DNA of 23,121 bases, taken from the NCBI GenBank assembly GCA_036676985.1, contig JAKFBU010000013.1, positions 1 through 23,121 on the forward strand, given 5' to 3'. Under the pieces are notes generated by a model. It searched no databases and had not been told where the DNA came from. It saw nothing but the letters and a program-made list of their open reading frames with translations. The translations under genes were made by a program, and so were the position numbers. The DNA comes from Candidatus Sericytochromatia bacterium. Lineage in GTDB: Bacteria; Cyanobacteriota; Sericytochromatia; S15B-MN24; UBA4093. Shown piece by piece: positions 2,900 through 19,171 of the stretch. Positions within the stretch are counted from its first letter, which is position 1. Each line of letters starts with the position of its first letter.

Positions 2900-5800
2900 T
2901 CAAACATGCACGGATTGCCCCAACGCTGCGGCCCCTTGCCACCCGTCGACGGACAGATCGTCCAGCGTGCGCTTTCCGACCTTGCCCGCTCGTTGGGCGT
3001 CCCGCTCCTCCCCATGGGTCACGATGCAGTCCACCGCGGTGTAAAGCCGGGCGAGACCCGGCAGATCCAGGGCGTCCGGAACCAGGAGGAGATCGGGGCC
3101 ATCCTCGGGATCGAGGCCCGCCTCGGCCAGGGCGCCGGCAATCCTCTCGCCGGCATCCTCGGGCGTGACGCCCTGGCTCGGATCGAGCCAGAGAACGAGG
3201 CTCACGTCCGCGTCGGCCGGGAAGGCACGCGCGTAGCTGGTGACGACCTCCTGCCAGGAGGTGGAGCCCCACTGGGGGTGATGGAGGAAGGCGTAGCGGC
3301 GTCGATCCTCGAGCGGCAACGGCATCAGCCCCGCCTGAAACGGGTCGGAGAGCGCGAAGCGAGTCGGGGTGCGCATGCCGAGGATGCGCAGGCGCTCGAG
3401 GATCCGCTCGGCCATGTGCGCCCACGTGAAGCCGGACAGGATCCGGTCGCGTGCCCGCTTGCCGACCGCTTTGGCATGCGCGGGGTCGGCCACCACCGAT
3501 TGCATCAGCGTGATCAGGGCGTCGCCATCGGGCTCGGCCCACCAGTAGCCGACGGCGCTGGGGGGGAGGGACGACGGGGGGAGGGGGACCTCGCGCGCCG
3601 GAATCAGGAAGGCGGTCTCCGAGTCGCAGAAGTCCAGGCAGGCCCCGTATCCCGTCACGATGACCGGCAGGCTCGTTGCCATGGCCTCCGCGATGGGTAG
3701 GGCGAAGCCTTCCCCGCGATAGGGGTGGACCAGGCAATGGCATGCCGCGTAGAGGCCGGCAATCTCGGCATCGCTGAGCGGATCGTCCAGGTACTCGATT
3801 TCCGGAGCCAGTGGATTGGCCTGGATCTCGGCGATGCGGTCCTTTGCCGTCTGGCCCTTGTAGAAGGACTTGCCACCGAGGTCCTTGATGACCAGGCAGA
3901 CGTCGTCGGCCGCGGTGAAGGCCTTCACGTACGCCTCCAACAGGACGTCGATGCCCTTGCGCAGGATCGTGCCTCCGACGAAGAGGAACTTGAAGCGTTT
4001 CCGGGTCGCGAGGGGGTACTTGGGGGCGTCCGGGTGCAGGCGATCGGTGTCGACCCCGTTCGGGATCACGATGACCTTGTCGGCGGGAATGCCGCTGCGC
4101 AGATAGCCGTCGCGCACGTGGCTCGTGGGCACCCAGATCTCGTCCACCTGGTGCGTCATGGGCTCGACCCACTCGTGGGGAATGCCCCCGAACTCCCAGG
4201 GCTGGATCATCGCCCAGGCCCCCTCGGCGGGCGGTTCGAACTTGGGCGGCCACTGGTGACGCACGTGGACGTCCGCCGGACCTGTCAAAGGGGCGTTGGT
4301 GCGATCGGCGATCACCTGGAGCGAGGGGTCGACCTCGGGACCGAACTCATCGGCCTCGTAGGGGACGATCGAGAGCTCGAGACCCGACTCGGCGAGGCGC
4401 CGGCAAACTTCACGGTTGATGAGCGCCAGGGAGTGGCGGACGAATTGCGAGCCCTCCCAGACGAGCCGCAGGCCCTGCCTGGCCCGCACGTCGTGGTAGT
4501 GCCCGACGAGCTCGTCCAGGTAAGCGTCGAAGCCGCGTGGCGCCTGGATGGCTCGCTGCATCCGACCGAGCAGGCCTGGGTCGCGGACGAACTGGAAGAG
4601 CGCGCTGCCCAGCCCCGGGGCGTTGCGGGGATCGACCAAGTAGCCGGTCTTGCCCTCCTCGATGAAGTCGGGAATGCCGCCGATGCGGCTGCCGATGACC
4701 GGGCAGCGGGCCGCAAGGGCCTCGGCGACCACCAGGGGGGCGCAGTCTTCCCAGATGGAGGGGATCACGACCACGTCGACGCGCTTGAGTAGCTCGGGCA
4801 GTTGCTCGACGTCGTAGCGGCCATGGAACTTGACCAACCCCTTGGCGTCGATCTCATGCAGCATGTCCTCGTAGGCCTTGGGGCCGCTGCCGAACAGGTG
4901 CCCCTCGATCTGATCCCGGCCGAAGGACTGTAGCGCCCGGACGAGGACGTGTACCCCCTTCTGGGGCAGGAGGCTGCCGATGAAGCCGACCTTCAACGGG
5001 CGATCGAGTGCACCTTCGAGGGGGCGTCGCGAGCCCGCTTTCTCCCAGAGCCATTCCACCGTTTCCGGCTGCTGCTGGAGGACGTGGATCCGCGAGGCGT
5101 CATGCCCGCTGCCGGCGTAGAGCTCCTTGACCCGGTGGGAGACGGCGAGATGCCGATCGACCCAGCGGTTGAGCATCTGCCGTCCGCTGTCCGCGCGCAA
5201 GGCGTAGCCACCCGTCTGATCGGGCCGACCCACGCAGATGGCGCACTTGCTGCCGTCTTCCGAGGGGCCGCTGCAGAGTGTCAGGTCCTCCTGGAAGAGG
5301 TACATACGCGGGCAAATGGGCCAGTAGTTGTGGGAGGTGAAGACGCTCGGCACTCCGGCCTGCTTGATCTCGGCCGCGATGCCCGTCGAGAAGTTGAGCA
5401 GGCTGTGGTAGTGGACGATGTCCGGCCGCAGCTCGGCGACCAGCTGCGCGATGATCCGCCGCATCTGGGGATCATCGGCCTCGCGCTCCGGGTGCTCCAT
5501 GTCGTAGAAGATCGCCGGGCGGTTGTAGATGGCGAAGAGCTGGACGCCCTCCTCCTCGCTCGCCTCGACGTGATAGGCGGGCTTGTCCGGTCGATTCTGG
5601 GACGGGGTGTAGATCACCGTAATCCGGTGACCCCGCCGGACGAGCGCCTTGGCGATCTGCCGCGGCAAGATGGTGCCGCCGCCTTCCTCGGCCCAGCCGT
5701 ACATGGTGAAGAGGATATGCAACGGATGATCCGCCGGGATGACCTTGGGGGCCGGCGCGCTCGCCGCGACCGTCGAGAAGGCCTCCAGGGGGCGCGCAGT

Positions 5801-8800
5801 CACCGCGACCGTGGGCGGGAGCGTCGTGAGTTGCGGCACCATGCCAAGGCCGCTGTCGATGGCCAGGGCCCAGGCCTCCTTGTCCATGACCCCTTGCGCC
5901 CACCGGCTTTGGGCCGCGGTGTACAGGTCGGGGTGGTTCAGGACGACCCGCGCCTTGATGCGTTGATCCTTGGCGCGGTCTTGACCGTAGACGCTGGCGC
6001 CGTGGATGCGATAAAAGTTGGTCGCCGCCGGCACGTGGACCCCGCGATGTCCCTGCTTGCCGCAGCGGATCCAGAAGTCCCAGTCCTCGTACCCTTCATG
6101 CGTCGGGAAGCCGCCCACGTCCTCCCATGCCTGCCGTTTGAAGAGCGTGGCCATGGTCAGGTAATTGAAGCGCTGCAGGAGCTCGAAGCTGTAGGCGGGC
6201 GGCACGTCGAAGGCCGCCGTGTTGCCGAATTTCTGGACGTTGGGATAGGCGACCGAGGCCTCCGGATGGGCTTCGAGCGCCGCCACGCAGGCGGCGAGGT
6301 AGTTCGGGGGGAGCTTGTCGTCGGCGTCGAGCGTGACGATGTAGTGGCCGCTCGCCTGTTCGATGCCGCTGTTGCGCGCGCGCAGGTGTCCGCCGTTCTG
6401 CTGCGTGTGCAGGCGGATGGGGAACGTCGGGTAGTCGGCCATGAGGGCCTGCGCGACGTCGCGCGAATCGTCGGTGCTGCCGTCATCGACGATGATGACC
6501 TCGCACGCCGGATGGGTCTGGGCGAGGACGCTCTCCACCGCCGTGCGCAGGAAGCGACCGTAGTTGTAGCAGGGGATGATGACCGAGACGCGCGGTTCGC
6601 CCGGGGGGGGCGCCTCGTGGGGAATGGTCCCCTTGGTGATCTGGAAGTACCGTAGGCCCAGCGCCTGGGCAAGGTTGCGCTCGCGCGGACAGCCCGTGTC
6701 CAGCACGGCGGTGGCCGCTCGGAAGACGGAGACCCGTGCGCTCGACGGAGCGTCGATCAGGAGCACGTCGGGAATGGCATCCGGATCGTAGCCGTGCTCG
6801 GTGAGCCAGGCCAGGATCTGCTCTTGGCGCGTTTCGGCCGCGCCTTCCGGAACCCGGATCATGAGGCACAGGTCGAGGTTGGACGCGTAGTCCGCCAGGA
6901 CCGCCGCGAGGTTCGCTTCCCAGGCCTCGGGATCCGCCACGAGCCAGCGATCCCGGGCCGCGGTGGCGACGTCCAGGGCCGGAGCCTCCCAATCGGCCTC
7001 TTCCACGGAGGGGTGGCGCAGCGGCAGCGACTCGCCGCTCCATGCGGGCGGGAGCTCCGGCCGGGTCGTCGCGGCCCGCCGCAGGGCGTCGGCGTCGGCG
7101 TCGGGCAGGACGGTGCGACCCCGCTCCTCGGCAAGGCTCATTAGCGTCCGAGTCCCCGCTTGATCGCCAAGCGGGAGGAAGGCATGGGCGCTGAGCAACT
7201 GGGCCAGGAACACGGAGTTGAACTCCGCCGGGCGCACCTGCTGGATGTCGACGCTGGGCGTCAGGGCAGGGTCGAGTCCGAGGGAGGCGACGGCCTCCTC
7301 ATAGGCTAGGGCGATCTGCTGGGTCTGGGGGTCGCTGGTGCTCAGGACGACGAGGGGGTACGGGTCTTCCGGCTGGAAGGTGGTGAGGTACGACGCCATG
7401 GCGCGCCCCAGGGCGAGCGGGTCGAGCTCGTCGCCGGTGGCCGCGATGAAGGTGGCCGCCGTGGTCTCGGCAGGGACGTTGGCCTCGCTCGGCCAGCTGA
7501 CCTGGAAGAGCTCGATTTGCCGGGGATCTTGCCCGAGCACCGTGTAGTTGGCTTGTTCGGGTTTCGGCGCGATGCGGGCGACCTCGAGGTTGCTGGCGAT
7601 CGCCGCGAGCCCGAAGCGCTCGAGGGCCTTCTGGAGCACCTCCTGCCCGGCTTGACAGTCACCGCTCATCAGCAGGCTCACCCCCAGGTTGTTGTGGGCC
7701 TCGGGGAAGTCCGGCGCCAGTTCCAGGGCCGCTTCAAACTCAGGCACCGCCAGCCCCGGATCCGGCAGCTCGGCGCGCAGCATGAGGTTGCCCAGATCTA
7801 GGTGGGCCGAGGCACGCGCCGATACCTCGTCGGCACAGAAGGCGATCTCCGGATAGAGCTCGTCGATGGCATAGCGTTCGCGCATCTCGCGCCGCATGCG
7901 CCGCGCCTCCTCGCCGAGTCGGTCGTGGCGCTTGCTGGAGGTCGAGTGGCTCTCCTCGTGGGCGCGGTACTTGAGCAGCTTGTCCGGGAGCACCGCGAAG
8001 CGGCAGCGGGCCACGGCGGCCTTTAGCCAGAACTGGAAGTCGTGGGGCCAGCCGTACTCCTGCAGGCCGATGCGACGGAGGATGGAGCGCCGGAACATGG
8101 CCGTCGGGTTGGGGACCAGACAGCACCGGAACATCTGTCGGCCGAACAGCCGACGTTCGAATACGTCGTTGGCGATGGGTCGGATGATGCTGCCGCCGAG
8201 GTCTCGCCCCTCCGCGTCGATGTAGCTCGCGTCGTGGTAGATGACCTCGAGCGACGGATCAGCGAGAAAGGCCGTGACCTGGCGCGCGATTTTCTCCGGG
8301 TGCATGAGGTCGTCGCCGTTGGCGATGGCGATCAGGTCGCCCGTCGTGGCCTCCAGGCAGCGGTTGAAGGTCTCATGCAGCCGCGCTCGACCCTTGTTCG
8401 CTTGGTATTCATACCGTACGCGCGGATCGTGCAGGTACTTCGCGACCACCTCGCGGGTGCCGTCGGTCGAGCCATCGTCGAGGATGTACAGCTCGAAGGC
8501 CGTGTGGGTCTGCTTCAAGATGGCCTGGATGGCCTCGTCGAGGTAGTGGGCGTAGTTGTAGACGTAGGCGACGATGCTGACGCTGGGCAAGGGCCGCTCT
8601 ATCGGGAGGAGGCTCGGGTGTGCCGCTAGGAAGGCATCCTCCGCATCGGTCGTGCGCTGTCTTTCGAACTCGGTGGGAGGCAGGTATAGGGGGCTCCTGC
8701 CGAGGATGCCCTCCGCAATGCGATCGAGAGAGGCATGCCGCCCGGGGGCGAGCTCTTCGACGGACTGGTAGCGAAGCTCGCCGTGCGAGAAGTTCACAAC

Positions 8801-10168
8801 CTTCACCAGCGGGAAGGGGATGCTCAGACCGAAAAAGAGTCGAAATGCAGCACGGAGGGCGCGCCGACGGTATTCATCTGACGGAGCGGTAGAGAGGAGG
8901 TTCTCCAGGAAGGCGGGATAGGACTCTTTGCTGTCGAGATCCAGGGTGAAACCCCACCCCTGGTACATGGGACGTCCTACCACTCCGACGGGGATGCCCC
9001 GGCTTACGGCCGTTTCGAGCCCCACGGTCGAATTGTAGACCAGGGTCGCGGTCGACATGTCAATGAGCGTGTAGGAACTGACGTCGTCCTTGGGCCAGAC
9101 CACCGAGACGTTGGCAGGCAACTGGGCCAGCGTGCGCTCGTAGCGCTCCATCACCCGTCCGCTGCGACCCTGCATGTGGTCCTCGTTGGGGTGAATCCGA
9201 ACGATCAGGTGGTAATCGGGATGTTCGTCAAACCAGCGGATCGTATCGGCAACCCACTCGATCATTTCGGGGTAGGGCCCGCGCCAGTCGGCGGTCGATG
9301 CCTCGGACTGCGAGCTGGTGAAGAGGGTGACGATTTTCCGCCCGCTCGGGATGCCCAGCCGGGCCCTGGTGGCCTCGATCGGCTGTGGCGGCGGTGAAAA
9401 GGCGTGCCAGCTCAGCTCTTTTCCGTAGCGACGCTGCATGATGAGCCGGTAGGCGTCCTCGAGTTCGGCCTCGAGGAGGGGAACCGCCTGCCAGCGATCG
9501 CGACACTCGTCGAGGCGGGGCCGGGCCCAGATCGCCTGATTCTCCGCAAAGGTCAGCGACTCGGGCAACAGGCCCCGCTCATGGTGGATGACGCGCAGGC
9601 CGCGTTCCCGCGCGAGCTCGTTGGCAACGCGGTGGCTGAAGAAACTACCGTTGAGCATGGCGACGCAGTCAGGCTGGAACTCGTCGAGTTGGCGCGATAG
9701 GGACCGCATGGCGAGCGCTCCGCCGAAAAGGTAGTTCCGGAAGGTCTGGGCCTGCTCGCCTGATAGCTCGCCGAAATCCGGCTGCCGGTAGTGGGCAATG
9801 AGGGAGCTCTTGCACCATTCGCCGAGGGGACGGCCGTCGAACTGCGCCGTGAAGAGATCTACATCTGCCATCCCGGCAAGCCAGGCGCTGACCTCGCGGC
9901 GGTCCTCAGGGTTTACCCGATCGCTCAGCCAGGCATGCTCGAGGTGCAAATTCTCGAAGACCCTGCGTCCGAGTGCGTGGCAGGATTGGCAGCCTTGCTC
10001 GGTGCGGGTGCTGTTTCCCCAGAAGATGTCGCAAGCTGGGAAGAAGCTGTCGCAGCCGACGAAGCGAACCTCGGCCCCCCGGTGCCGGAGGGCGTGGGCA
10101 ATGGTCGCCTCCCAGTAGGTGTGAAGGTACCAGTCACCGGAGTAGGGAGAGTAGAACAGGATCTTCAA
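2900..10168 (-). CDS. Giant multidomain glycosyltransferase (KpsS/capsule-synthesis-like + GT2 + TPR + GT2 + GT4 + GT4, plus three degenerate GT-B lobes)
   Basis: Uninterrupted ORF. Likely start is TTG at 10168 (MKILFYSPY, GAGGT 6 nt upstream); the ORF track extends it to 10189. Motifs: RIHPNE / NSTVGLE / YQGWGFTLD; ILDDGSTD..NGDD; IVDDGSTD..LDADD; QKG..SIWEDCAPLVVAEA; RKG..YRGEGFALPIAEA. Confidence 0.9.
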   Translation of the reverse strand: MKILFYSPYSGDWYLHTYWEATIAHALRHRGAEVRFVGCDSFFPACDIFWGNSTRTEQGCQSCHALGRRVFENLHLEHAWLSDRVNPEDRREVSAWLAGMADVDLFTAQFDGRPLGEWCKSSLIAHYRQPDFGELSGEQAQTFRNYLFGGALAMRSLSRQLDEFQPDCVAMLNGSFFSHRVANELARERGLRVIHHERGLLPESLTFAENQAIWARPRLDECRDRWQAVPLLEAELEDAYRLIMQRRYGKELSWHAFSPPPQPIEATRARLGIPSGRKIVTLFTSSQSEASTADWRGPYPEMIEWVADTIRWFDEHPDYHLIVRIHPNEDHMQGRSGRVMERYERTLAQLPANVSVVWPKDDVSSYTLIDMSTATLVYNSTVGLETAVSRGIPVGVVGRPMYQGWGFTLDLDSKESYPAFLENLLSTAPSDEYRRRALRAAFRLFFGLSIPFPLVKVVNFSHGELRYQSVEELAPGRHASLDRIAEGILGRSPLYLPPTEFERQRTTDAEDAFLAAHPSLLPIERPLPSVSIVAYVYNYAHYLDEAIQAILKQTHTAFELYILDDGSTDGTREVVAKYLHDPRVRYEYQANKGRARLHETFNRCLEATTGDLIAIANGDDLMHPEKIARQVTAFLADPSLEVIYHDASYIDAEGRDLGGSIIRPIANDVFERRLFGRQMFRCCLVPNPTAMFRRSILRRIGLQEYGWPHDFQFWLKAAVARCRFAVLPDKLLKYRAHEESHSTSSKRHDRLGEEARRMRREMRERYAIDELYPEIAFCADEVSARASAHLDLGNLMLRAELPDPGLAVPEFEAALELAPDFPEAHNNLGVSLLMSGDCQAGQEVLQKALERFGLAAIASNLEVARIAPKPEQANYTVLGQDPRQIELFQVSWPSEANVPAETTAATFIAATGDELDPLALGRAMASYLTTFQPEDPYPLVVLSTSDPQTQQIALAYEEAVASLGLDPALTPSVDIQQVRPAEFNSVFLAQLLSAHAFLPLGDQAGTRTLMSLAEERGRTVLPDADADALRRAATTRPELPPAWSGESLPLRHPSVEEADWEAPALDVATAARDRWLVADPEAWEANLAAVLADYASNLDLCLMIRVPEGAAETRQEQILAWLTEHGYDPDAIPDVLLIDAPSSARVSVFRAATAVLDTGCPRERNLAQALGLRYFQITKGTIPHEAPPPGEPRVSVIIPCYNYGRFLRTAVESVLAQTHPACEVIIVDDGSTDDSRDVAQALMADYPTFPIRLHTQQNGGHLRARNSGIEQASGHYIVTLDADDKLPPNYLAACVAALEAHPEASVAYPNVQKFGNTAAFDVPPAYSFELLQRFNYLTMATLFKRQAWEDVGGFPTHEGYEDWDFWIRCGKQGHRGVHVPAATNFYRIHGASVYGQDRAKDQRIKARVVLNHPDLYTAAQSRWAQGVMDKEAWALAIDSGLGMVPQLTTLPPTVAVTARPLEAFSTVAASAPAPKVIPADHPLHILFTMYGWAEEGGGTILPRQIAKALVRRGHRITVIYTPSQNRPDKPAYHVEASEEEGVQLFAIYNRPAIFYDMEHPEREADDPQMRRIIAQLVAELRPDIVHYHSLLNFSTGIAAEIKQAGVPSVFTSHNYWPICPRMYLFQEDLTLCSGPSEDGSKCAICVGRPDQTGGYALRADSGRQMLNRWVDRHLAVSHRVKELYAGSGHDASRIHVLQQQPETVEWLWEKAGSRRPLEGALDRPLKVGFIGSLLPQKGVHVLVRALQSFGRDQIEGHLFGSGPKAYEDMLHEIDAKGLVKFHGRYDVEQLPELLKRVDVVVIPSIWEDCAPLVVAEALAARCPVIGSRIGGIPDFIEEGKTGYLVDPRNAPGLGSALFQFVRDPGLLGRMQRAIQAPRGFDAYLDELVGHYHDVRARQGLRLVWEGSQFVRHSLALINREVCRRLAESGLELSIVPYEADEFGPEVDPSLQVIADRTNAPLTGPADVHVRHQWPPKFEPPAEGAWAMIQPWEFGGIPHEWVEPMTHQVDEIWVPTSHVRDGYLRSGIPADKVIVIPNGVDTDRLHPDAPKYPLATRKRFKFLFVGGTILRKGIDVLLEAYVKAFTAADDVCLVIKDLGGKSFYKGQTAKDRIAEIQANPLAPEIEYLDDPLSDAEIAGLYAACHCLVHPYRGEGFALPIAEAMATSLPVIVTGYGACLDFCDSETAFLIPAREVPLPPSSLPPSAVGYWWAEPDGDALITLMQSVVADPAHAKAVGKRARDRILSGFTWAHMAERILERLRILGMRTPTRFALSDPFQAGLMPLPLEDRRRYAFLHHPQWGSTSWQEVVTSYARAFPADADVSLVLWLDPSQGVTPEDAGERIAGALAEAGLDPEDGPDLLLVPDALDLPGLARLYTAVDCIVTHGEERDAQRAGKVGKRTLDDLSVDGWQGAAALGQSVHV

Positions 10169-10258
10169 GGGCTTACCTCGTGCTGCCAATCGCTTTCGTG
10201 CATGGTCAGGAGTTCAGGTGGTTGGCTCGAACCAGCGCTGTGCTTCCGCCAACGGGGG

Positions 10259-10933
10259 TCAAAGGATCCGACGCGCCGTCGCAAATGCCTCCGCCGCATG
10301 ACGACCTACCTTGCAGCCATGGTACAAGGCGGCGATTCTCACCGCCTCGACGGAGCGACTGTGCGGGGCCGGGCGCATCTCCGCGGCATAACATTCCAGG
10401 GCGACCACTAGCTGGTCCAGGTAGGCGGTGATATCGACGTAGGTGTCGGGCAGGAAGGGAGCGCCAATACTCGGGATGCTCCAGTCCGTGGCACTGGGCG
10501 TCTCGAAGCAGCGGATTTCCTCCACTCGCTCTCCAGGCTGGGGACGAAAGGCGGTCAAGGTCGCCTGACAGGCGATCCGGTGGTCCACGTTCAGGTCGCC
10601 CCCATGGTGGGTGTAGACAAGGTCGGGCTGGACCCGGGCCTTGGCTTGCTCGACCTTCTTCGCGATGTCGAGGAGAGGAACCGTGTCGAAGCTGTTGTCC
10701 GGAAAGGTCTCGAACCCCAGGATCGACGCACCCAGGAGGCGGGAGGCAGTCTCTGCCGCCTCCCGGCGCTCTCGAACGGCCTCCGGATTTACCGAGGTGC
10801 GAGAGCTGACCCCGTCGCCGAGGAACAACACTGAGACCGTGTCGCCCTCGGCGGCGTGTCGAGCCATCGTTCCGCCCATGCCGAGGACCTCATCATCGGG
10901 ATGGGCGGCGACGATCAAGATGTTGCGTGGCAT
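10259..10933 (-). CDS. PIG-L/LmbE family N-acetyl-sugar deacetylase
   Basis: Metal-binding motifs AHPDDE and THHGGDLNVDH, with C-terminal AEAF. Confidence 0.92.
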   Translation of the reverse strand: MPRNILIVAAHPDDEVLGMGGTMARHAAEGDTVSVLFLGDGVSSRTSVNPEAVRERREAAETASRLLGASILGFETFPDNSFDTVPLLDIAKKVEQAKARVQPDLVYTHHGGDLNVDHRIACQATLTAFRPQPGERVEEIRCFETPSATDWSIPSIGAPFLPDTYVDITAYLDQLVVALECYAAEMRPAPHSRSVEAVRIAALYHGCKVGRHAAEAFATARRIL

Positions 10934-10957
10934 GTTCTCTCGCTCTCTGGGGACGGG

Positions 10958-11680
10958 CTAAATCTGCTGCTTGAGCTGCTCGTACTTGTGGAAGACGCTG
11001 CCTTCCGCCAGGTACTTCTTCTGGCACACCGTCTCGAAGGTGGTGAAGCCATCCGTGTCGATGGAGTGGAACCACGCGTCCTCCTGCAGCTCCATCCGGT
11101 GAAGGCGTTCGAGGAATTCCTCGTTGATCCGATCCCGCGGAATGATGGCCACGCCGCTGTCGTCGCACACGGCGATCGTCCCGTCATACTTAGCCCGCAG
11201 CTCGGCCAGGAGCTCGGGGGACGGGCCGGATTCGTTCTTCACGTTGAAGCAGCCGACGGGCGTGCCGCCCTCGCTCCAGATCGCGTAGTTCTCCTTGCGC
11301 AGGGTGTGAACGTCCCGCACCAGCCCCATCATGACCACGGCGGCCACGTCCCGGTAGAGCATGAGGAACTTGGCCACCAGGGCCCCGAACACGGCGTAGT
11401 CTTTGCAGTCGATCGCGGCCACGATCAGGATCTCGCCCGGCTGGACGTCCTGGATCTGCTCGTGGAACTCCCAGTTGCTGCAGTTGTAGGCGTAGACGAG
11501 GCGTGTCGGTCCCACCCGGTGGTGTCCGTAATTCAGGGGCTGGACCTTCGGAATGGCGCCGGTCTTGCCGAGGCAGTCGGTGACCTCCGAGGTGCAGATG
11601 CGGTTGCGGCGGATGGTCTCGATCATCCGATCCTGCACAGATTGGGCAGCGATCCGTTTCTCTACGGTGGTCTCGGGCAT
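10958..11680 (-). CDS. RraA / HMG-CHA aldolase-like protein
   Basis: TSEVTDCLG, VQPGEILIV, AVFGALVA, GLVRD and AVCDDSGVAIIP fit the RraA-like fold. RBS AGGAGG. Confidence 0.8.
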   Translation of the reverse strand: MPETTVEKRIAAQSVQDRMIETIRRNRICTSEVTDCLGKTGAIPKVQPLNYGHHRVGPTRLVYAYNCSNWEFHEQIQDVQPGEILIVAAIDCKDYAVFGALVAKFLMLYRDVAAVVMMGLVRDVHTLRKENYAIWSEGGTPVGCFNVKNESGPSPELLAELRAKYDGTIAVCDDSGVAIIPRDRINEEFLERLHRMELQEDAWFHSIDTDGFTTFETVCQKKYLAEGSVFHKYEQLKQQI

Positions 11681-11688
11681 GGTGCCTC

Positions 11689-12504
11689 CTATCGGCGAGC
11701 GAGGGGTGCGGGAGAAGCGTTGAACAGCTCCAGGGCCGTCTGAGCCATGAGCTGCTCGATATCAGCAGCCGAGAAGTGGTGGGCCTCCAGGAACGCCAGG
11801 GTCTCGTCCCGGGAGTGCTGCATGGTCACGTAGGGGTGATCCGAACCGTACAGCCAGCGGTGCGCGCCGAGCTTGCGGATGGCGAAGGCGAAGTCCGTCT
11901 CGACGCTGCTGCCCCGCCAGAACGACACCGAAAAGGAGGTGTCGATGAGGAGATTCGGGGCGTCGAACGCCATGGACATCACCTCCAGGACCATGCGGCC
12001 TCCCCCGTGCAGGGCGATGAGCGGCGTCTTGACCGCTCGGGCAAGGGCACTCACCAGGCGCACGCCGCTCACGTCGAAGACCCGGAGCGTGCCGTAGCTG
12101 CAGCAGATTGCGCACCACAGGCCCCGGGCCCCCGCGTACTGGGCCACGCCGATGGCCGCGGGAAAGTCATGGTCTGCCAGGTTGAGCTCGTACGGGTGGA
12201 ACTTGATGCCGGCCATCCCGAGGGCAGCGGCCGCGTCGACTCGGTCGTAGGCGTCGGGGCGCCGGGGGTCGATCATGACCGTGGCCTTGAGGTCGGAGCG
12301 CTGGAGGCGAGCGGCCAGCGGGTGTCCCGGCTCGAGCAGGAAGTCGCTGTCGAGGAGCATGAGGTTTCCGGCTTCGATGCCGGTGGCCTGCAACTCGGAC
12401 TCGACGATACCGACGCGCTCGGGCGCGTCGAACCGCCTGAAATCCAGCTCGTTGGCAAGGTCGGGCTGGGGGGTGAGGTGGAGATTGAAGTCGACTAGGC
12501 GCAT
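11689..12504 (-). CDS. Amidohydrolase family protein (amidohydrolase_2-like TIM barrel)
   Basis: DFNLH (a variant of DxHxH), GIKFHP, LHGGG, IDTS and LYGSDHPY. Confidence 0.85.
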   Translation of the reverse strand: MRLVDFNLHLTPQPDLANELDFRRFDAPERVGIVESELQATGIEAGNLMLLDSDFLLEPGHPLAARLQRSDLKATVMIDPRRPDAYDRVDAAAALGMAGIKFHPYELNLADHDFPAAIGVAQYAGARGLWCAICCSYGTLRVFDVSGVRLVSALARAVKTPLIALHGGGRMVLEVMSMAFDAPNLLIDTSFSVSFWRGSSVETDFAFAIRKLGAHRWLYGSDHPYVTMQHSRDETLAFLEAHHFSAADIEQLMAQTALELFNASPAPLARR

Positions 12505-13145
12505 GGGGCTTTTCTCATGACGACCAGCATCTCGCGCTGGGGGATGGGGCGGTAGTCGTGGTGCAGCGAGACGAAGGGAGTCAGCTCGAAGGCCAGTTCG
12601 AGGATCTTGGCCGGCTCATAGTAGAAGACGAAGTCCTCTTTCGGGTAATCCGGCGTGAGCTCCGTGCTGAGCACGTCGAAGACCAGGGCTTCGTGGCACA
12701 GCTCGAAGGCCTTCGAGACTAGCGTCCGGGCATAGGTCCAGTTGTCCAGCTCCGACTGTTTGAAGTTGAGCAGCCCGAGCATGACGGCGACGTCGGCGGA
12801 AACCTGGTCGGGCTCCACCTGCAGCGGGCTCGCAACCAGGAAGCGCGCCTCCGGATACTTCTCGGCCGAGCGGGCGATGAAGTCGGGGTTGATGTCGAGG
12901 CCTGTGTAGGCGCTCGGCGTGAGGTTCGCCCGCTCGAGGGCCCCCAGGAGGTCGGCGAAGCCGCAGCCGATGTCCAGGACCGAGCGGCCTGCAAACGGGG
13001 TGCTCGCGAAGACCCGGGCGAATCGGTGCTCCTGCTGCTCCCGGCTGCCCCAGCCCAGGGTGCGGCAGGACTCGCCGTGGGACTGGTAGCGCTCCGAGTA
13101 GCGATGGACGGTCTGTTGATCGATGGCTTCGTAAGGGCTAGGCAT
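12495..13145 (-). CDS. Class I SAM-dependent methyltransferase
   Basis: Motif I SVLDIGCGFAD and motif II YTGLDIN. Overlaps both neighbours, suggesting translational coupling. Confidence 0.9.
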   Translation of the reverse strand: MPSPYEAIDQQTVHRYSERYQSHGESCRTLGWGSREQQEHRFARVFASTPFAGRSVLDIGCGFADLLGALERANLTPSAYTGLDINPDFIARSAEKYPEARFLVASPLQVEPDQVSADVAVMLGLLNFKQSELDNWTYARTLVSKAFELCHEALVFDVLSTELTPDYPKEDFVFYYEPAKILELAFELTPFVSLHHDYRPIPQREMLVVMRKAPCA

Positions 13146-14340
13146 AGGTCACCTTCAGGCCCTGCAGGGAGCGCTCGGCAAGCGCCTGAACCTCGGTTCG
13201 GGAGGCCCCCAGGGTGATCACGAACCCGTGACGATCGGCGTCAGTGGTGGTGGGCAGCACTTCGTCTCCGGCTCCGACGCGCAGGCGCAGGGCTGCCACT
13301 CCCTCGAGTCCGAGGACCTCTTCCTGACCTTGGATCCGCTGGATGCGTCCATGCGGGAAGACGAAGAACTTCAGGTAGGCAGCCCGGTGATCCTGCCCAC
13401 CCTTCTGTCGGTACAGGTCCTCGCCCAGCCCGAGGCTATCCATGACGAGCTGCCGGGTGACATCGATGCCCGATACGCCGGGCACGATGATCGAGGAGGT
13501 GTAGCATCCCCCGCCGCGGTTGGCGATCTCGATCAGGTAGGGATCCCCTTGCGCGTCCACCATGTACTCGGCGTGGGTGTAGCCGAAGCGGTAGCCGAGG
13601 CCGGCCACCACCCGGTCGTTGTTCTCGAGGGCTCGCTGGTAGACGGGCTCGGAGAGCTCGCCGGGGTAAAGGATGTCGATGGCCACCTGGCGATCCTTGA
13701 TCAGGGTCTTGGTGGCCAGGCTCAAGGAGCGATGGCCGCTCTCGGGAAAGCAGTAGCCGTCGACCGTGATATGCACGCCGTGGATGAAGGTCTCGACCAA
13801 GACCAGGCGCGAGTGCGAGTGGATGAGCGCCTCGTAGTAGGCCGCCCGTAGTTCCTCACGTGTATCGGCCCGGTTGACGCCGAAGCTCCCGCGGTTGTCG
13901 ACGGGCTTGAGGATGACGGGATAGCCGACACGCTCGGCGAAGCGTTCGGCCTCCGCAAGCTCCGTACATGCCTGGAAGGCGGGCTGCAGGAGGCCGGCCT
14001 CCTGGGCCCGCTGGCGTTGGAGCAGCTTGTTGGTGGCGATCTGGGCTTCGCGGAGGCGGGGCCCCGGCAGCCCGAGCTTCTCGGCGATGACCGTGCAGGC
14101 GAAGTAGGAGTAGTCGCATTGGTCGGAGACGACGGCGGCCGGCTGCAGCTTCTCGGCGAAGGCGAGCACCTCGTCCAGGTTCCGCGGGGCGATCACCTCC
14201 ACGTAATCGAGCCCGAGATCCCGCGCGTAGGAGTCGTCCGGATGAAGTCCGACCACCGGGTGCCCGAACTCCTTCGCCGTTCGGATCAGGGCCTCTTGCT
14301 CCCAGCCGAGGTTGATGACCAGGATCGGTCTAGCCGACAT
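13138..14340 (-). CDS. ATP-grasp amide ligase (L-amino-acid-ligase-like)
   Basis: TNKLLQR, GYPVILKPVDNRGSFGV, LVETFIHG, HAEY and LIEIANRGGG. Start reassigned to ATG 14340 (MSARPILV, GGAGG upstream), overlapping the synthase stop by 11 nt. Confidence 0.9.
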   Translation of the reverse strand: MSARPILVINLGWEQEALIRTAKEFGHPVVGLHPDDSYARDLGLDYVEVIAPRNLDEVLAFAEKLQPAAVVSDQCDYSYFACTVIAEKLGLPGPRLREAQIATNKLLQRQRAQEAGLLQPAFQACTELAEAERFAERVGYPVILKPVDNRGSFGVNRADTREELRAAYYEALIHSHSRLVLVETFIHGVHITVDGYCFPESGHRSLSLATKTLIKDRQVAIDILYPGELSEPVYQRALENNDRVVAGLGYRFGYTHAEYMVDAQGDPYLIEIANRGGGCYTSSIIVPGVSGIDVTRQLVMDSLGLGEDLYRQKGGQDHRAAYLKFFVFPHGRIQRIQGQEEVLGLEGVAALRLRVGAGDEVLPTTTDADRHGFVITLGASRTEVQALAERSLQGLKVTYA

Positions 14341-15370
14341 ACTCGAGATCCTCCCAAGACAGCAGGGTTCCGGCCGACATGTCGCGCCGGAGGCGGTGGC
14401 AAACCAGGTGTTCGAGCATTTCCGCGGGAATCCCACCGGCCGTGCGACGAAGCGTCAGGTGATCCCGCAGGATCCGCTCCCCCTTCGGCAGGTCGCCGCG
14501 CGCCACCCACTTGAACGAGACGTCCGCCCGGAAGGCCAGCTCGTCCGGCGTGAGCGCGGGGCGCAGCCCGTCGCCCATGCCGGCTTCGATTTCGCGGACA
14601 TGGCGGACCATCTCCCGGAACTCGGCAGGCTCGATGGCGAAGTGATGGTCGGGGCCCGGCAGGCTCCGGTCGAGCGTGAGGTGCTTCTCCAGCACGACGG
14701 CGCCGAGGGCGACGGCCGCCGGGGCGAAGTGGATGTCGTGCGTGTGGTCGGAGTAGCCGACCAGGCAGCCAAACGCCTGGCGATAGGTTTGGATCAGGCG
14801 CAAGTTGGCGCGCTGGGGCTCGGTCGGGTACTGGGAGACGCAATGCAGAAGGACGAGCTGATCGTTTCCCGCCCGGCGGCAGAGCTCGAGCGTGCGCTGG
14901 ATGTCGCCGTAGTCGGCGATGCCCGTCGACATCACGAGCGGCAGGCCGGTGGCCGCGGCTCGCGCCACCAGCTCGTCGTAGACGCCGAACTGGGCGGAGG
15001 CGATCTTGTAGGCGGGCACGCCGTGCTGACGCAACAGCTCGATGGCCTCCACGTACGTGGGCGACGAGATGAAGTGCAGCCCCCGGCGCTGGCAGTGGGC
15101 CGAGATCTCGGCGTACCAGGTTTCGGACAGCTCGATCTGGGCGAAGAACTCTCGAAACTCGGGGGTGGTCTTGTCCGGGAGGTACAGTTCGTCGAACTTC
15201 AGGGACTGGAACTTGGCCGCATCTGCTCCCGCTTCAGCGGCCGCGTCGATCAGCTCCTTGGCCAGCGCCATGTCCTGGTTATGGTTCGAGCCAATCTCCG
15301 CGATGATGTAGGTGGGTGCGCCGTTCCCGACCAGCCGATGGCCGATTTGGATCTGTTTCGCATCGTGCAT
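14330..15370 (-). CDS. pseI: NeuB/PseI/SpsE-family nonulosonic acid synthase with C-terminal SAF domain
   Basis: IIAEIGSNHN, ADAAKFQ, KIAS, MSTG, LHCVSQYP, GYSDHT and LEKHLTLDR. Start reassigned to ATG 15370 (GGAGG 9 nt upstream; 15376 is an alternative). The pseI symbol rests on genomic context with pseB/C/F/G. Confidence 0.85.
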   Translation of the reverse strand: MHDAKQIQIGHRLVGNGAPTYIIAEIGSNHNQDMALAKELIDAAAEAGADAAKFQSLKFDELYLPDKTTPEFREFFAQIELSETWYAEISAHCQRRGLHFISSPTYVEAIELLRQHGVPAYKIASAQFGVYDELVARAAATGLPLVMSTGIADYGDIQRTLELCRRAGNDQLVLLHCVSQYPTEPQRANLRLIQTYRQAFGCLVGYSDHTHDIHFAPAAVALGAVVLEKHLTLDRSLPGPDHHFAIEPAEFREMVRHVREIEAGMGDGLRPALTPDELAFRADVSFKWVARGDLPKGERILRDHLTLRRTAGGIPAEMLEHLVCHRLRRDMSAGTLLSWEDLEYVG

Positions 15371-15394
15371 ATTCATTCGCCTCCACTGGTAGTT

Positions 15395-15421
15395 ACATCG
15401 GCTTGATGAGGAGAACCTTAA
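15395..15421 (-). promoter_or_regulatory. Putative sigma28 promoter for the synthase/tailoring operon
   Basis: Minus strand reads TTAA(15421-15418)-N15-GCCGATGT(15402-15395), directly upstream of the RBS. Confidence 0.65.
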
Positions 15422-15767
15422 ACGCCCGGATGGCCATGCCGAGGCCTGAGCCAGCAAAGCCGGATCACGCCGTCGGCCTAGGTGGTCCTCACATGGGCTT
15501 CGACTGGTTTGCACCCCAACAGGATCGGCCTAAGGAAAGCGCTGTACAGTATACCGGCGCCATGCCTGATTGGAAACCTGAGCCTGCCGTCGCTCTGAGC
15601 CCAGGAGGTCTTGCCAAGAATGGGTTAGGCCTGCGTCTCGGCCGCGATGACCTCGGCCATTCGCCCGGCGCCACGACCATGCCACAAGTCGCATGGCCCG
15701 GCCCGACTCCAGGGCAGCCGTCGACATGCCTGGCGATTTGGCCCCCTTCACCGGAACGGCCGGGTCT

Positions 15768-16715
15768 CTAGGATCTCAGCCGACAAATCAGCTGAATGAC
15801 ACTCGCACGCCTCTGATGCAGGGCCACGTCATCGAAGATGCGATCCGCTTCGTCGACGACCCGCTGCAAATCAGGAGCCTGCTGGGTCAGCGTCGACAGG
15901 TCAATCCCCAATCGCTTGCAGATCGAGTGGATGAAATACCAGTTGCGGGGCATCTCATGCTGGAGCAGGACCTCGAATCCTGCCTTGGATAGTAAGCTGG
16001 CGATGCCCGTGCGGGAAAACAGGACCAGGTGATAGGGCGGCATGGTCCAGAAGAAGTCTGCCCCGAGGTGCTCGAAGAGCAGGCTGTCGACCGTAGGGAG
16101 TTCGAGGAGCAGGATCCCCTCGGGGTTCAGCAGCCGTTGAGCCTCGGTGAGGAATCGGCCAGGCTCCTTGAGGTGTTCGATGAGGGTCCACGCCGTCACG
16201 ACGTCGAACCGCTGATTCGTCACGTCGGACCAGTGGCCTTGCTGCAGGTGGCCCTGCAAGTCCAGCCGTTGCTGGCCCATTTCGATCGAGCATCGGGAAA
16301 GGTCGATCCCCGTCGCTGCGAAGCCTTCGTCGCGCATGAAGCGAACGAACACGCCGGCGCCACAGCCGACGTCCAGTAGGCTCGCCTTCGGTTGGATAAA
16401 GCCAAGTAGGGGCTTGATGCGGTGCTCGTAGAAATACGCTCGCTTGACAGGGTCGAAGTAACGTGACAGCGAGGCCTCGAGGATGCTGCGCTCCACCTCC
16501 GCCTCCGTGGCCTCGGCGGCATAGAAGTCCGCCAACGCGCTATCCGTCGGAGGGGGATTGACGAAATGCGTGCCGCAATCGAGGCACTTCGAATGGTGGA
16601 TCCCCTCGGCCGACATGAATCCCCGTTTGGAGGTCAAGGCGGAGACGAGCAGCCGGCTCGAGGTACACGCCGGGCACTGCTCGAGCATCGGATCAAATGC
16701 AAGCGTAGAATTCAT
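15768..16715 (-). CDS. Class I SAM-dependent methyltransferase with N-terminal CxxC..CxxC zinc ribbon
   Basis: CPAC and CLDC; LLDVGCGAG, GIDLS, FDVVTAWTLIEH, LNPEG and PPYHL. Start is ATG 16715 (AGGA upstream) or 16739. Confidence 0.88.
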   Translation of the reverse strand: MNSTLAFDPMLEQCPACTSSRLLVSALTSKRGFMSAEGIHHSKCLDCGTHFVNPPPTDSALADFYAAEATEAEVERSILEASLSRYFDPVKRAYFYEHRIKPLLGFIQPKASLLDVGCGAGVFVRFMRDEGFAATGIDLSRCSIEMGQQRLDLQGHLQQGHWSDVTNQRFDVVTAWTLIEHLKEPGRFLTEAQRLLNPEGILLLELPTVDSLLFEHLGADFFWTMPPYHLVLFSRTGIASLLSKAGFEVLLQHEMPRNWYFIHSICKRLGIDLSTLTQQAPDLQRVVDEADRIFDDVALHQRRASVIQLICRLRS

Positions 16716-17024
16716 GGATCTTCCTGCCTCTGCGGTCATGGGTGGAGCTGCGAGTTACTGAGTGGGTGGCGATAGCCCCTCTCGGGAAAGCATTAGCCGT
16801 CGACCGTGGTGGGACCGCCGTGGTATAGAGCGCGAACGGGCATGCTTCAGTCGACCTTATTATGTGTCGACTCCCTCAGTCATAAACCGTGCGGGCGAGC
16901 CAGTTCTGGGCCCATGGAGGCTCCCTGCGCGGCCATGACCCCTGCTTGGTAGTATCGTCAGCCCCCAGCAACACTTGAGATTTGCCGTAGAATCGAAGGG
17001 TGCTCGCAACGGAGGTGAATCCAC

Positions 17025-18179
17025 ATGCGCCCGTGGGCGAAACGAATGGACGCGATCGCGTTCTCTGCATCGGTAAATCTGGCCCAGCGGGTCCGCGACG
17101 ACAAGGCGGCGGGCCAAGAACTGTACGACTTCACGGTAGGAGAGCCTCACTGGTCACCCCCCGAGTCCGTGCTCGCGGCGGTTCATGCTGGCTTGGAGCA
17201 TGGGCATACCCGCTATTCGGACTCCCGCGGGCTGCTGCCCCTACGCGCGGAGCTGGCACGGATCCTCTCGGTGCGCGGGGTGCCCGCAGCCGAGGAGTTC
17301 GTGCTGCTCTCGCCAGGCGGCAAGCAGGCTATCTACACGGCTTGCCATGCCCTCTTGGATCCGGGTGATGAGGTCATCCTCTTTCCGCCCTGCTGGGTTA
17401 GCTATGCAGACATCATCAAGCTCGCGGGGGGAGTTCCGATCGAAGTGCCTTGCCATGCCGCCGATCGCTTTCGCCCGAGCGAGGAGGCGCTGCGCTGCGC
17501 CATCACGCCCCGGACCAAGCTCGTGATCGTCAACAACCCCGGCAACCCAACCGGTGCGGTCTGGGAGCCCGCCGTTGTTTCCATGGTGGCGCGGGTGGCT
17601 GCCGAGCACGACTTGTGGCTCCTCGATGATCTGGTCTATGAGGCTTTCAACTATTCGGGCGCACCGGTTTTGCCGATTGGGGCAACCCCCGAGGGCCGCG
17701 AGCGTACGCTTACGGTCGGCAGCTTCTCCAAATCCTACGCCATGACGGGCTTCCGAGTAGGCTACTTGAGCACGCCCGAATTCCTATTCTCACCCTGCTT
17801 GAAGGTCGTGCAGCAGACGGTTACGTGTCTGCCGGTCTTCGTACAGGAAGGAGCCTTGGCGGCTTTGCGCGCGGCCCCGAGCTTTCCGGCTCACATGGCC
17901 GACCATTACGCTCGGCTCGCCCGCGTGGTCTCGGACGAACTGGGAGAGATCGAGGCAGGGCCCCTGGAGGGGGCCTTCTACGCCTTCGTGGACGTTCGCC
18001 GAAAGGGCATGACCTCGACTGCTTTCTGCGACTGGCTCTACCAAGCGTACCGCGTGGCCTGCGTCCCCGGATCCGCGTTCGGCGAGGCCGGCGAGGGGTG
18101 GGTCCGCGTTTCCTATGCGTGCGAGGAGTCGCAGCTGCGCGAAGGCATGCGCCGCCTGGCAGCAGCCATCCGGACCTAA
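17025..18179 (+). CDS. PLP-dependent aminotransferase class I/II (aspartate aminotransferase-like)
   Basis: VGEP, GGKQA, NNPGNPTG, DLVY and SFSKSYAMTGFRVG (PLP lysine), EGWVRVSYA. RBS GGAGGTG. The only plus-strand gene in the window. Confidence 0.93.
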   Translation: MRPWAKRMDAIAFSASVNLAQRVRDDKAAGQELYDFTVGEPHWSPPESVLAAVHAGLEHGHTRYSDSRGLLPLRAELARILSVRGVPAAEEFVLLSPGGKQAIYTACHALLDPGDEVILFPPCWVSYADIIKLAGGVPIEVPCHAADRFRPSEEALRCAITPRTKLVIVNNPGNPTGAVWEPAVVSMVARVAAEHDLWLLDDLVYEAFNYSGAPVLPIGATPEGRERTLTVGSFSKSYAMTGFRVGYLSTPEFLFSPCLKVVQQTVTCLPVFVQEGALAALRAAPSFPAHMADHYARLARVVSDELGEIEAGPLEGAFYAFVDVRRKGMTSTAFCDWLYQAYRVACVPGSAFGEAGEGWVRVSYACEESQLREGMRRLAAAIRT

Positions 18180-19171
18180 CGGGAGGGAAGGGCCGCCACA
18201 AGCTCGTGGGCGATTCGGTTGGCGCCCTGTCCGTCCAGGACCGCTCGTCCGGCTGTGCCGAGGCGCTGCCGCTCTTCCGGGTCCTGCATCAAGCGGGTCA
18301 TTGCCTGCTTCAGCGAGAGGAGCCAAGCCTCGCCCTTGGCCCAACCGACTGAGATCAGGCTGCCTCGCTCCTCGAGCGAGGCCAGGTTCACCAGTTGATC
18401 TTCTCCTACGCAGAGCGCGACGGTAGGCACACCCGAGCATGCCAACTCGTAGAGCGTCTGACCGCCCGCGGTGATGGCGAGGTCAGCCGTCCGGATCCGC
18501 CGCGGCATGTCGGGCGGATGGCGGTGGAGTTGAACGTTGGGGCCGGCCGCCGGCACGCGCTGAAAAAAGGGCCCGACGATGAAGTCGATGACGAAGTCCG
18601 GGGCTTGGTGAGCGGCCCAGTCTTGCAAGGCTTCCAAGAGGCGATCGGCAATTCCCAAGAGGTCATCGCCCCCGAGCGTGACCAAGACATTGGCCGGGAG
18701 TTGCTTGTAATCTCGTGCAGGCGGTACCAGGAAGTCGGGACGCACGATCTGGTAATCGGGTCCGAGTAGCAGCCGGGTTGTCGCTCCCGTACGATAGGCG
18801 AGCTTGATGGCCCCAGGAGCCCCGTTGATGACGAGGTCAACCGGCAATTCTCGATCAGCCTTGTCGTCAAAGCAGGCGAGCACCATCCCTGAGGGTCGGC
18901 GTGCCGCAAGGGTGCAGGGGTCAAGCCGGTAGCTGTCGGCGACAAGGGCCCGGGCCCCGGCTTGTTCGGCCTCAAGCCACAGGCTCTCGGGGCTTGCCGG
19001 GCCGACCCGTACCGACATCCCCTGCTCGCTGAGAACCCCCTCGAGGCTCGGCTCGACCAGGAATACGACCTCGCGGCCCATGGCCTTAAGGCTTCGGGCC
19101 AACCCGATTCCGCGCATGGCGTGACCGAGGCCCACGCCGTGGCCTCCGTCGACGTGCAGGGCGATCGTCAT
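18176..19171 (-). CDS. pseG: PseG/SpsG-like UDP-sugar hydrolase
   Basis: DGGHGVGLGHAMR (catalytic His motif), DSY, LLLGPDY, LVTLGGDD and TAGGQTLYE, in pse context. Confidence 0.85.
   Translation of the reverse strand: MTIALHVDGGHGVGLGHAMRGIGLARSLKAMGREVVFLVEPSLEGVLSEQGMSVRVGPASPESLWLEAEQAGARALVADSYRLDPCTLAARRPSGMVLACFDDKADRELPVDLVINGAPGAIKLAYRTGATTRLLLGPDYQIVRPDFLVPPARDYKQLPANVLVTLGGDDLLGIADRLLEALQDWAAHQAPDFVIDFIVGPFFQRVPAAGPNVQLHRHPPDMPRRIRTADLAITAGGQTLYELACSGVPTVALCVGEDQLVNLASLEERGSLISVGWAKGEAWLLSLKQAMTRLMQDPEERQRLGTAGRAVLDGQGANRIAHELVAALPSR

Follow-up and report, generated by a model that had tools for sequence, protein, structure and literature searches.

The window analysed here is the whole of a 23121-base contig (JAKFBU010000013.1) from a Candidatus Sericytochromatia bacterium; it is GC-rich (0.58-0.70), and nearly all of its genes lie on the - strand. 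Our subject is the N-terminal module (8600..10168, - strand) of a multi-transferase encoded by a giant gene (2900..10168, - strand), which an earlier note on this DNA had proposed to be a KpsS/KpsC-like nonulosonate transferase. The open reading frame (ORF) of the giant gene, 2900-10189, is a single uninterrupted frame with a translation of 2429 amino acids (aa), while the database copy of the protein has 2422 aa and starts 7 codons later, at TTG 10168. We consider this TTG the likelier start, because a GAGG lies 7 nucleotides (nt) upstream of it; it also fits the 2422-aa database form and the end coordinate of the earlier note. Residue numbers in this manuscript are counted from 10189, and 7 has to be subtracted for a start at TTG 10168.

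The giant protein has five transferase modules, namely the KpsS-like module, two GT2 modules and two GT4 modules. The KpsS/KpsC-like module, of the glycosyltransferase B (GT-B) type with a four-cysteine (Cys4) insert, comes first (aa 8-530), as supported by PF05159, an AlphaFold2 (AF2) model, and full-length stand-alone and fused relatives. Along the - strand it is followed by a GT2 domain (8090-8587; aa 535-700), a short TPR stretch (7610-7807; aa ~795-860), a linker to which no family is assigned (6605-7612; aa 860-1195), a second GT2 (5891-6595; aa 1199-1433), two GT4 domains (4550-5683, aa 1503-1880; 3395-4084, aa 2036-2265), and a tail, again without an assigned family (2903-3394; aa 2266-2429).

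The motif strings quoted in the earlier note are all found in the translation of the module: HHERG (aa 202-206), LIVRIHPNE (aa 328-336), SSYTLID (aa 371-377), YNSTVGLE (aa 385-392), GIPV (aa 398-401) and GRPMYQGWGFTLD (aa 405-417). The Cys4 cluster, C46-x6-C53-x13-C67-x2-C70, lies exactly at 9980..10054 (- strand), within the N-terminal Rossmann domain, where it occupies the loop that follows strand 2. The same domain carries the HERG motif (9572..9583, - strand), whose E204 is a candidate general base. The remaining elements are SSQSE (9302..9316, - strand), the counterpart of the QXXXD motif discussed below, with E296 as candidate nucleophile; the HP motif H333-P334 (9188..9193, - strand), which aligns with the HP of KpsC; and the STVGLE ... 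YQGWG block of the C-terminal Rossmann domain (8951..9031, - strand), which aligns with KpsC TSQYGFE ... YAGWG.

Similarity to KpsS/KpsC profiles, on which the earlier note had staked its assignment, is present with PF05159, with a family profile and with hhalign. The module matches PF05159 (Capsule_synth) over aa 321-421 with an E-value of 3.2e-12 and 47 bits (cut-off 20), thus passing the Pfam threshold, although the match spans only profile positions 182-278 of 310. A single-sequence search of the PDB reached KpsC chains at an E-value of only about 0.2, but a 20-member family profile found KpsC at 3.7e-6 to 9.7e-6, and WbbB at 0.7. With the kpsC and kpsS products of E. coli CFT073 as comparison controls, hhalign aligned the family profile to KpsC at 93% over 95 columns, from HP to Y-x-G-W-G, and to KpsS at 91%, where the 244 columns (aa 166-418 of the module, 74-354 of KpsS) take in both Rossmann domains. 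Judged by these profiles, the module is KpsS/KpsC-like, but distantly.

The alignments also place the candidate catalytic residues. According to published accounts, which are cited here and below from excerpts, HP is the CMP-phosphate-binding motif of this superfamily (PMC12887879; PMC5420450), and QXXXD is called invariant in retaining transferases of 3-deoxy-D-manno-octulosonate (Kdo), its Asp being the covalent nucleophile and its Gln binding the sugar carboxylate (PMC10148158; PMC12887879). The general base is Glu66 in KpsC and the Glu of a YE motif in KrkA and KpsS1 (PMC12887879; PMC10148158). In the hhalign alignment, E296 of the module is paired with D237 in the QVYND of KpsS, and E204 falls on the first E of FEEGY in the same enzyme. 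By eye, VTLFT-S-SQS-E lines up gap-free with the KpsC peptide VLVVD-Q-TFN-D160 as quoted in an excerpt of PMC10148158, and in the C-terminal domain E296 and D160 follow the first strand at equivalent positions.

Conservation was examined in a 20-relative alignment, whose members are 24-40% identical to the module, and in 151 rows drawn from the 150 best cluster representatives of the family profile search. The four cysteines, H333, P334 and E392 are invariant in 20/20 of the aligned relatives. With the PF05159 score, this conservation shows that the motifs go beyond a chance resemblance. In the larger set, H333 and P334 are each present in 150/151 rows and E392 in 148/151, and the cysteines are nearly as constant (C46 144, C53 144, C67 147, C70 147), the remaining rows being gapped there, apart from one or two that have a substitution at C46 and C53. 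Position 204 is E in 140 rows and D in 6 (E or D in 146), and position 296 is acidic in 150 (E 108, D 42). Position 292 is S in 100 rows and N in 41, while position 295 is D in 99 and W in 39, the S295 of the window being found in only 2. By these counts at 292, 295 and 296, the family splits into an SSxDE type and an NxxWD type. The Y.GWG motif, which the earlier note listed among the hallmarks of KpsC/KpsS enzymes, is present in the module as YQGWG, but its W is not conserved in the family consensus. The Cys4 cluster also occurs in distant relatives (alignment A4), one of which, from Rhodopirellula, a source names as LipB/KpsS family, and it is absent from E. coli KpsS. In the AF2 model it lies in the loop between strand 40-45 and helix 64-80, with a predicted local distance difference test score (pLDDT) of 72-74, and we infer that it may be a structural zinc site peculiar to this family.

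Structure prediction, proposed as a check in the earlier note, gave a confident GT-B fold for the module (AF2 with the 20-sequence alignment; pLDDT 91.5, predicted template modelling score, pTM, 0.89), and all Foldseek matches of this model in the PDB are GT-B enzymes. The two Rossmann domains of GT-B and the H333-P334 pair are both features of the retaining ulosonate transferases of GT99, GT107, GT118 and GT140. The top target-normalised TM-scores belong to KpsC (0.47-0.56; 6mgd 0.56, 8fux 0.53, 6mgb 0.51) and WbbB (0.45-0.47). The predicted structure establishes GT-B only; it is compatible with the KpsC/WbbB group, which it does not single out.

The gene context provides a likely donor. PseB (21767-22804, - strand; 527.8 bits against an NCBIfam cut-off of 407.75) and PseC (20593-21999, -; 513.1 against 423.5) both pass their equivalog cut-offs. 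They are accompanied by a CTP_transf_3 CMP-sugar cytidylyltransferase (19859-20596, -; Pfam, E 2.3e-29), a PseG-like protein (18176-19171, -; 135.4 bits, below the cut-off of 153.55) and a NeuB/PseI-family nonulosonate synthase (14330-15514, -; PF03102 at 3e-75, with PseI at 247 and NeuB at 279 bits, both below cut-offs). At the other end of the contig, the giant gene, a gene for a 792-aa TPR-GT2-TPR protein (433-2811, -; Pfam GT2 and TPR) and a flagellin gene lie in tandem on one strand; of the latter, only the N-terminal 101 codons are present before it runs off the contig (1-303, -; Flagellin_N, 8.9e-31). A pathway for a pseudaminic acid (Pse) donor and a flagellin locus are thus both present, in support of the earlier note. 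Judged by its gene content, the window is an island for flagellin glycosylation, with a decorated pseudaminic acid at its centre. The earlier note was also right that the module is the sole plausible CMP-sugar transferase here, as no other domain of the window comes from a family known to use CMP-sugars. Scans for the Maf domain (PF01973) found none, neither in the giant protein (E<=1) nor, at E<=10, in its module or linker, nor in the other window ORFs scanned (E<=0.001).

We therefore consider the module the best candidate for adding a sialic-acid-like sugar to a flagellar glycan, in a locus that apparently has neither a Maf nor an FlmG-type enzyme. Specifically, and with a confidence that lies a little on the favourable side of even, we propose that it is a CMP-pseudaminate-type transferase within an assembly line for flagellin glycans, and a GT-B member of the HP-motif ulosonate-transferase superfamily. 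It would be a cytoplasmic GT-B enzyme of the superfamily that includes KpsS, KpsC, WbbB and KpsS1. The genes upstream would make a CMP-activated pseudaminic-acid derivative, which would be its donor, and the module would add this derivative to a glycan built on flagellin by the giant protein and the TPR-GT2 neighbour. H333-P334 and the STVGLE helix would hold the CMP, and E204 of HERG, in the N-terminal domain, would deprotonate the acceptor hydroxyl. E296 may replace the Asp nucleophile of QXXXD, giving a glycosyl-enzyme intermediate, or else serve as a catalytic acid/base.

Several observations weigh against this proposal, and some of them concern the kinship itself. The similarity to KpsC is restricted to about 100 residues in the nucleotide-binding half. 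The NCBIfam KpsS equivalog NF050054 gives only 16.2 bits against a cut-off of 600, and NF046086, the model of the BFO_1060 Pse/Leg (legionaminic acid) transferases, only 16.6 against 200 (aa 321-393). The QXXXD motif by which retaining enzymes are recognised reads S292-S-Q-S-E296 here, so that the acid is kept and the Gln is lost. With a KpsC match of this extent, a KpsS equivalog score of 16 bits against 600, and SXXXE in place of QXXXD, the GT107-type assignment of the earlier note is not supported. In the Foldseek search, moreover, the E-values are led by GT1 enzymes that use uridine or thymidine diphosphate sugars (UDP-, TDP-sugars; 7yp6, 6.8e-11), KpsC first appears at rank 14 (8fuw, 2.1e-9), and query-normalised TM-scores are all <=0.37. 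Finally, the window is the whole of a 23-kb contig, and a Maf gene may lie elsewhere in the genome. These GT1 matches, the altered QXXXD and the short contig would also suit a GT-B module that acts on a UDP-, TDP- or guanosine diphosphate (GDP-) sugar, or one that is a dead scaffold, with the nonulosonate transferase encoded off the contig. We think this improbable, since HP is described as the CMP motif of the superfamily (excerpts of PMC12887879; PMC5420450), the Pfam and hhalign matches are specific to KpsS/KpsC, and, as regards a dead domain, HP, the acid at 296, E204 and E392 are kept in nearly all of the 151 rows.

Related loci were collected by a pattern search with a 5-sequence alignment, which gave at least 6, and a plasmid locus was added; the sample is small, at 7, and the window's own organism is not among the loci. 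Two syntenic loci from Sericytochromatia / Tanganyikabacteria (L003 and L004), which count as one observation, encode module-GT2 fusions together with a PseC-like aminotransferase, GT4 genes, a cytidylyltransferase, NeuB, formyltransferases and PIG-L. A GT2-module fusion from Gemmatimonadaceae (L005) adjoins NeuB and a PseG-like gene, and a stand-alone 529-aa form on an Azospirillum thermophilum plasmid (L008, NZ_CP029359.1) adjoins neuB, an acylneuraminate cytidylyltransferase, an amidotransferase with HisH/HisF, and a TPR protein. In Syntrophobacteraceae (L001, a 7-kb contig), a 1959-aa fusion with GT2 and TPR is flanked by FlaF and FlbT. A second Gemmatimonadaceae locus (L006) has a module cut by the contig end, MotA, and no NeuB in 9.7 kb, and for a Planctomycetota example (L002) the sequence examined covers the gene only. 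NeuB thus lies near the relatives in 4/7 loci (L003, L004, L005, L008), including other phyla, in support of the link to nonulosonates drawn in the earlier note, and flagellar genes occur in 2/7 (L001, L006). On the opposite side of the balance are the 3/7 loci without NeuB, although in two of them the contig is too short for a verdict and the third was examined on one side only. A Maf domain was found in none of the related-locus ORFs scanned with Pfam.

The examined flanks of L003, L004, L005 and L008 contain no flagellar gene, which also tells against our proposal, and which would be expected if the locus decorated another surface protein or a polysaccharide, with the flagellin gene a mere neighbour. 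This we regard as very improbable. The locus genes share their strand with the flagellin gene, in tandem; the relative in L001 has FlaF and FlbT as neighbours, and that in L006 has MotA nearby; and the Pfam matches of the scanned window ORFs include no family of transporters, polymerases or lipid-carrier transferases.

The recurrence of NeuB beside relatives speaks against the idea that the module is a beta-Kdo transferase like KpsS/KpsC, drawing on housekeeping CMP-Kdo. Such an enzyme would account for the fact that the only significant named relatives are Kdo transferases, and the window's cytidylyltransferase matches only KdsB-type NCBIfam models, all below cut-offs. The window, however, has no Kdo synthesis gene and does have the Pse pathway, the carboxylate-binding Gln of QXXXD is lost, and the KpsS equivalog score is far below its cut-off, so that we give this idea little credence.

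As to the acceptor, we consider a sugar of a growing O-glycan more likely than Ser/Thr, because characterised relatives use lipid or sugar acceptors, and because another protein of the window appears better suited to the first step. The GT2 part of the TPR-GT2-TPR protein has a weak match to the SunS family of peptide S-glycosyltransferases (92 bits against a cut-off of 350), and the protein as a whole presumably resembles known flagellin transferases that combine GT2 and TPR. On sequence grounds it is a candidate for the protein-linking (Ser/Thr) transferase. The protein-glycosylation role given to the module in the earlier note is consequently kept in part: the Pse pathway does lie beside a flagellin gene, but a sugar acceptor is preferred to a direct protein acceptor.

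Were the module itself the flagellin Ser/Thr pseudaminyltransferase, Maf and FlmG would be joined by a third class, in which flagellin would be bound by the TPR of either the giant protein or the neighbour. The window lacks a Maf domain, and the flagellin gene lies two genes downstream. Excerpts of 10.1101/2023.12.03.569772 describe FlmG as confined to Caulobacterales, and a TPR or helper protein as the partner of the transferase domain in both known classes. A TPR is fused to the module in 7/30 scanned relatives, and in one of these (P0096), where it is N-terminal and precedes the module, the layout resembles that of FlmG. We nevertheless judge this unlikely. The neighbour, with its SunS-type match, fits the initiating role better, and the four further transferase modules of the giant protein imply an oligosaccharide. 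KpsS1 reportedly acts on a capsule sugar acceptor, which we count against direct transfer to flagellin, and so do the acceptors given for KpsS (phosphatidylglycerol) and KpsC (Kdo) in excerpts of PMC12887879.

The CMP-pseudaminate-type transferase that we propose belongs to a large family. At E<=0.001 the family profile search returned 13201 cluster representatives, of which 8374 also pass E<=1e-10, and 3714 pass E<=1e-30. The family is covered by no NCBIfam model, those of the BFO_1060 family and KpsS coming closest, both sub-threshold. A word-indexed search found 27 relatives of 291-928 aa, many of which cover 92-100% of the module at 26-40% identity without any other domain, and 13 longer proteins, one of them the window's own; the closest of these are 56-62% identical and all are multi-domain. 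Against plasmids, tblastn gave 4 records, one of which covers >=80% of the query (Azospirillum thermophilum, 31.8% identity, annotated as hypothetical). Among the 149 best representatives with a near-complete module (two of the 151 rows were dropped as short or duplicate), 95 are stand-alone and 54 are fused, fused meaning at least 250 extra residues, and the module is N-terminal in 49/54 of the fused forms. On a FastTree phylogeny, at least 26 changes between the fused and the stand-alone state are required, 15 of them forced by well-supported branches, while shuffled labels average 44; by this count, fusion and fission have been frequent in the family. The window's module falls in a well-supported clade of four fused forms. 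The proposal in the earlier note that a capsule-type enzyme was recruited to protein glycosylation by fusion is therefore too simple.

A Pfam scan of 30 chosen extended representatives found GT2 in 20/30, TPR in 7/30 as above, and no domain at 1e-6 in six. One 2405-aa relative (P0089) has, besides the module, a GT41 (OGT-type) domain at aa 2188-2382, TPRs and four GT2 matches. OGT-type domains are protein O-glycosyltransferases, and the GT41 of P0089 therefore fits a protein target for these assembly-line enzymes.

The linker (aa 860-1195) and the tail of the giant protein have no Pfam match at E<=10 and no NCBIfam match at E<=1. By self-BLAST (E about 2e-5 to 6e-5), aa 1089-1180 and aa 2311-2407 resemble one another as well as the second GT4 in its C-terminal half; a Rossmann-like unit of about 95 aa is thus repeated in linker and tail. 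An Atlas search with them leads to GT4-type fragments, all below 0.9. AF2 models them poorly (pLDDT 56.7), one Rossmann-like sub-domain being confident, and Foldseek with this poor model gives 0 matches at E<=0.001. A second CMP-sugar transferase hidden in these regions was considered and tentatively set aside, as they match no Pfam or NCBIfam family at these thresholds and resemble GT4-type halves; they look like degenerate half-GT-B spacers. The first GT4 carries a second Cys4 cluster, C-x12-C-x9-C-x2-C (5234-5314, - strand; aa 1626-1652), which is kept in three other fused relatives (P0032, P0060 and P0058). Two different GT-B modules of the giant protein would thus each have a putative zinc knuckle.

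Within the Pse cluster lies an unusual set of apparent tailoring genes, at 10259-14436 and 15768-18179, which are all on the - strand apart from the aminotransferase and were assigned with Pfam. They encode a PIG-L deacetylase (10259-10933), an RraA/HMG-aldolase-like protein (10958-11680), an Amidohydro_2 protein (11689-12504), an ATP-grasp ligase with an L-amino-acid-ligase C-terminal domain (13138-14436), two methyltransferases (12495-13145 and 15768-16739) and a class I/II aminotransferase (17025-18179, + strand). This set suggests a heavily decorated nonulosonate, perhaps with an amino-acid-derived substituent. A formyltransferase-like protein is encoded at 19168-19887 (-; Pfam), and no N-acetyltransferase family was matched among the scanned window ORFs; in a Pse cluster we would presumably expect an acetyltransferase of the PseH type. 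Together these hint at an N-formylated sugar. Formyltransferases are also encoded in the two Sericytochromatia-type loci (L003, 18357-21019; L004, 20226-21017). As longest ORFs, PseC and PseB overlap by 233 nt, and the ATP-grasp and NeuB genes (13138-14436 and 14330-15514) by 107 nt. PseC and the ATP-grasp gene probably begin further downstream than these ORFs do, in the case of PseC because its family match starts only at aa 86.

In the Azospirillum plasmid locus, a "surface carbohydrate biosynthesis protein" is annotated directly upstream of neuB (L008, 4738-6228). The module's own match to the NCBIfam model of that name, TIGR04396, is very weak (E 0.21, HP region), and the annotated protein may represent another HP-motif transferase of this locus, distinct from the module's relative.

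What appears to be new here is a relative of the HP-motif GT-B ulosonate transferases that combines a changed nucleophile motif, a Cys4 insert and a protein-glycosylation context. In the literature searched, with subscription journals and bioRxiv supplements outside its scope, we found no link between KpsS/KpsC-type enzymes and flagellin glycosylation. Excerpts of the published work report that characterised nonulosonate transferases are few, whatever their kind (PMC5420450), and that FlmG is confined to the one order Caulobacterales (10.1101/2023.12.03.569772). The family described here is large and unnamed, and its members recur beside NeuB in Sericytochromatia-type lineages, Gemmatimonadaceae and Azospirillum. 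If it does consist of CMP-Pse or CMP-Leg transferases, thousands of "hypothetical" genes gain a function, glyco-engineering gains a new enzyme scaffold, and the family offers a natural test of whether the double-displacement chemistry of KpsC/WbbB tolerates a Glu nucleophile and the loss of the Gln. A wider generalisation, which we put forward tentatively and regard as rather doubtful, is that the Cys4 KpsS-like family forms a third class of cytoplasmic nonulosonate transferases for protein glycans, spread widely across the phylogeny. These would place Pse/Leg-type sugars on flagellin where Maf and FlmG are lacking, either onto Ser/Thr or within an oligosaccharide made by fused enzymes, with a Glu (Asp in one subclade) in SSxDE / NxxWD replacing the QXXXD nucleophile.

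Of the known systems, the module shares most with E. coli KpsS and KpsC, the beta-Kdo transferases of the group 2 capsule linker (PF05159; KpsC is GT107). They are alike in the GT-B fold, in the HP, S-x-x-G-x-E helix and Y-x-G-W-G turn of the C-terminal domain, in an acid at the nucleophile position, and in an N-terminal-domain E-x-G that aligns with KpsS FEEGY. The module differs in having SXXXE in place of QXXXD, in its Cys4 insert after strand 2, which KpsS lacks, and in size (about 520 aa, while KpsS has 412 aa and each KpsC module about 325 aa). Unlike KpsS/KpsC, it has no apparent stretch at the C-terminal end that would anchor it to the membrane, and it is found with a Pse pathway and a flagellin gene, whereas KpsS/KpsC belong to the kps capsule export locus.

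Two other known systems use donors of the proposed kind. Acinetobacter baumannii KpsS1 is described as a retaining Pse5Ac7Ac transferase of GT118 with CMP-Pse as donor (excerpts of PMC12887879). As a KpsS-like enzyme using CMP-Pse, it shows that the superfamily can handle nonulosonates; it is compared with the module by description only, and no KpsS1 chain was among the PDB profile-search matches or the Foldseek PDB matches listed. It is said to work in capsule synthesis on a sugar acceptor, whereas the module has a flagellin context. Tannerella forsythia Tanf_01245 and the BFO_1060 family are Pse/Leg-derivative transferases of general O-glycosylation with HP and D/E-D/E-G motifs (excerpts of PMC5420450), and they add a terminal nonulosonate to a protein-bound O-glycan, as we propose for the module. 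They have a TagB-like domain and no reported Cys4, which the module has, and their connection with it is the sub-threshold NCBIfam match in the HP region (16.6 against 200 bits), a lead only.

Maf and FlmG are the two known classes of flagellin nonulosonate transferase (excerpts of PMC7591256; 10.1101/2023.12.03.569772). Maf combines a GT-A type fold with PF01973 (MAF_flag10 / DUF115), while the module is GT-B and PF01973 was not found in it. FlmG, compared by description only, has an N-terminal TPR and a C-terminal GT-B domain of about 280 aa, while here the module is N-terminal and the TPR lies downstream. In their setting, however, FlmG and Maf resemble what we propose for the module, as both are cytoplasmic, use a Pse or Leg donor, and are tied to flagellin genes and TPR domains.

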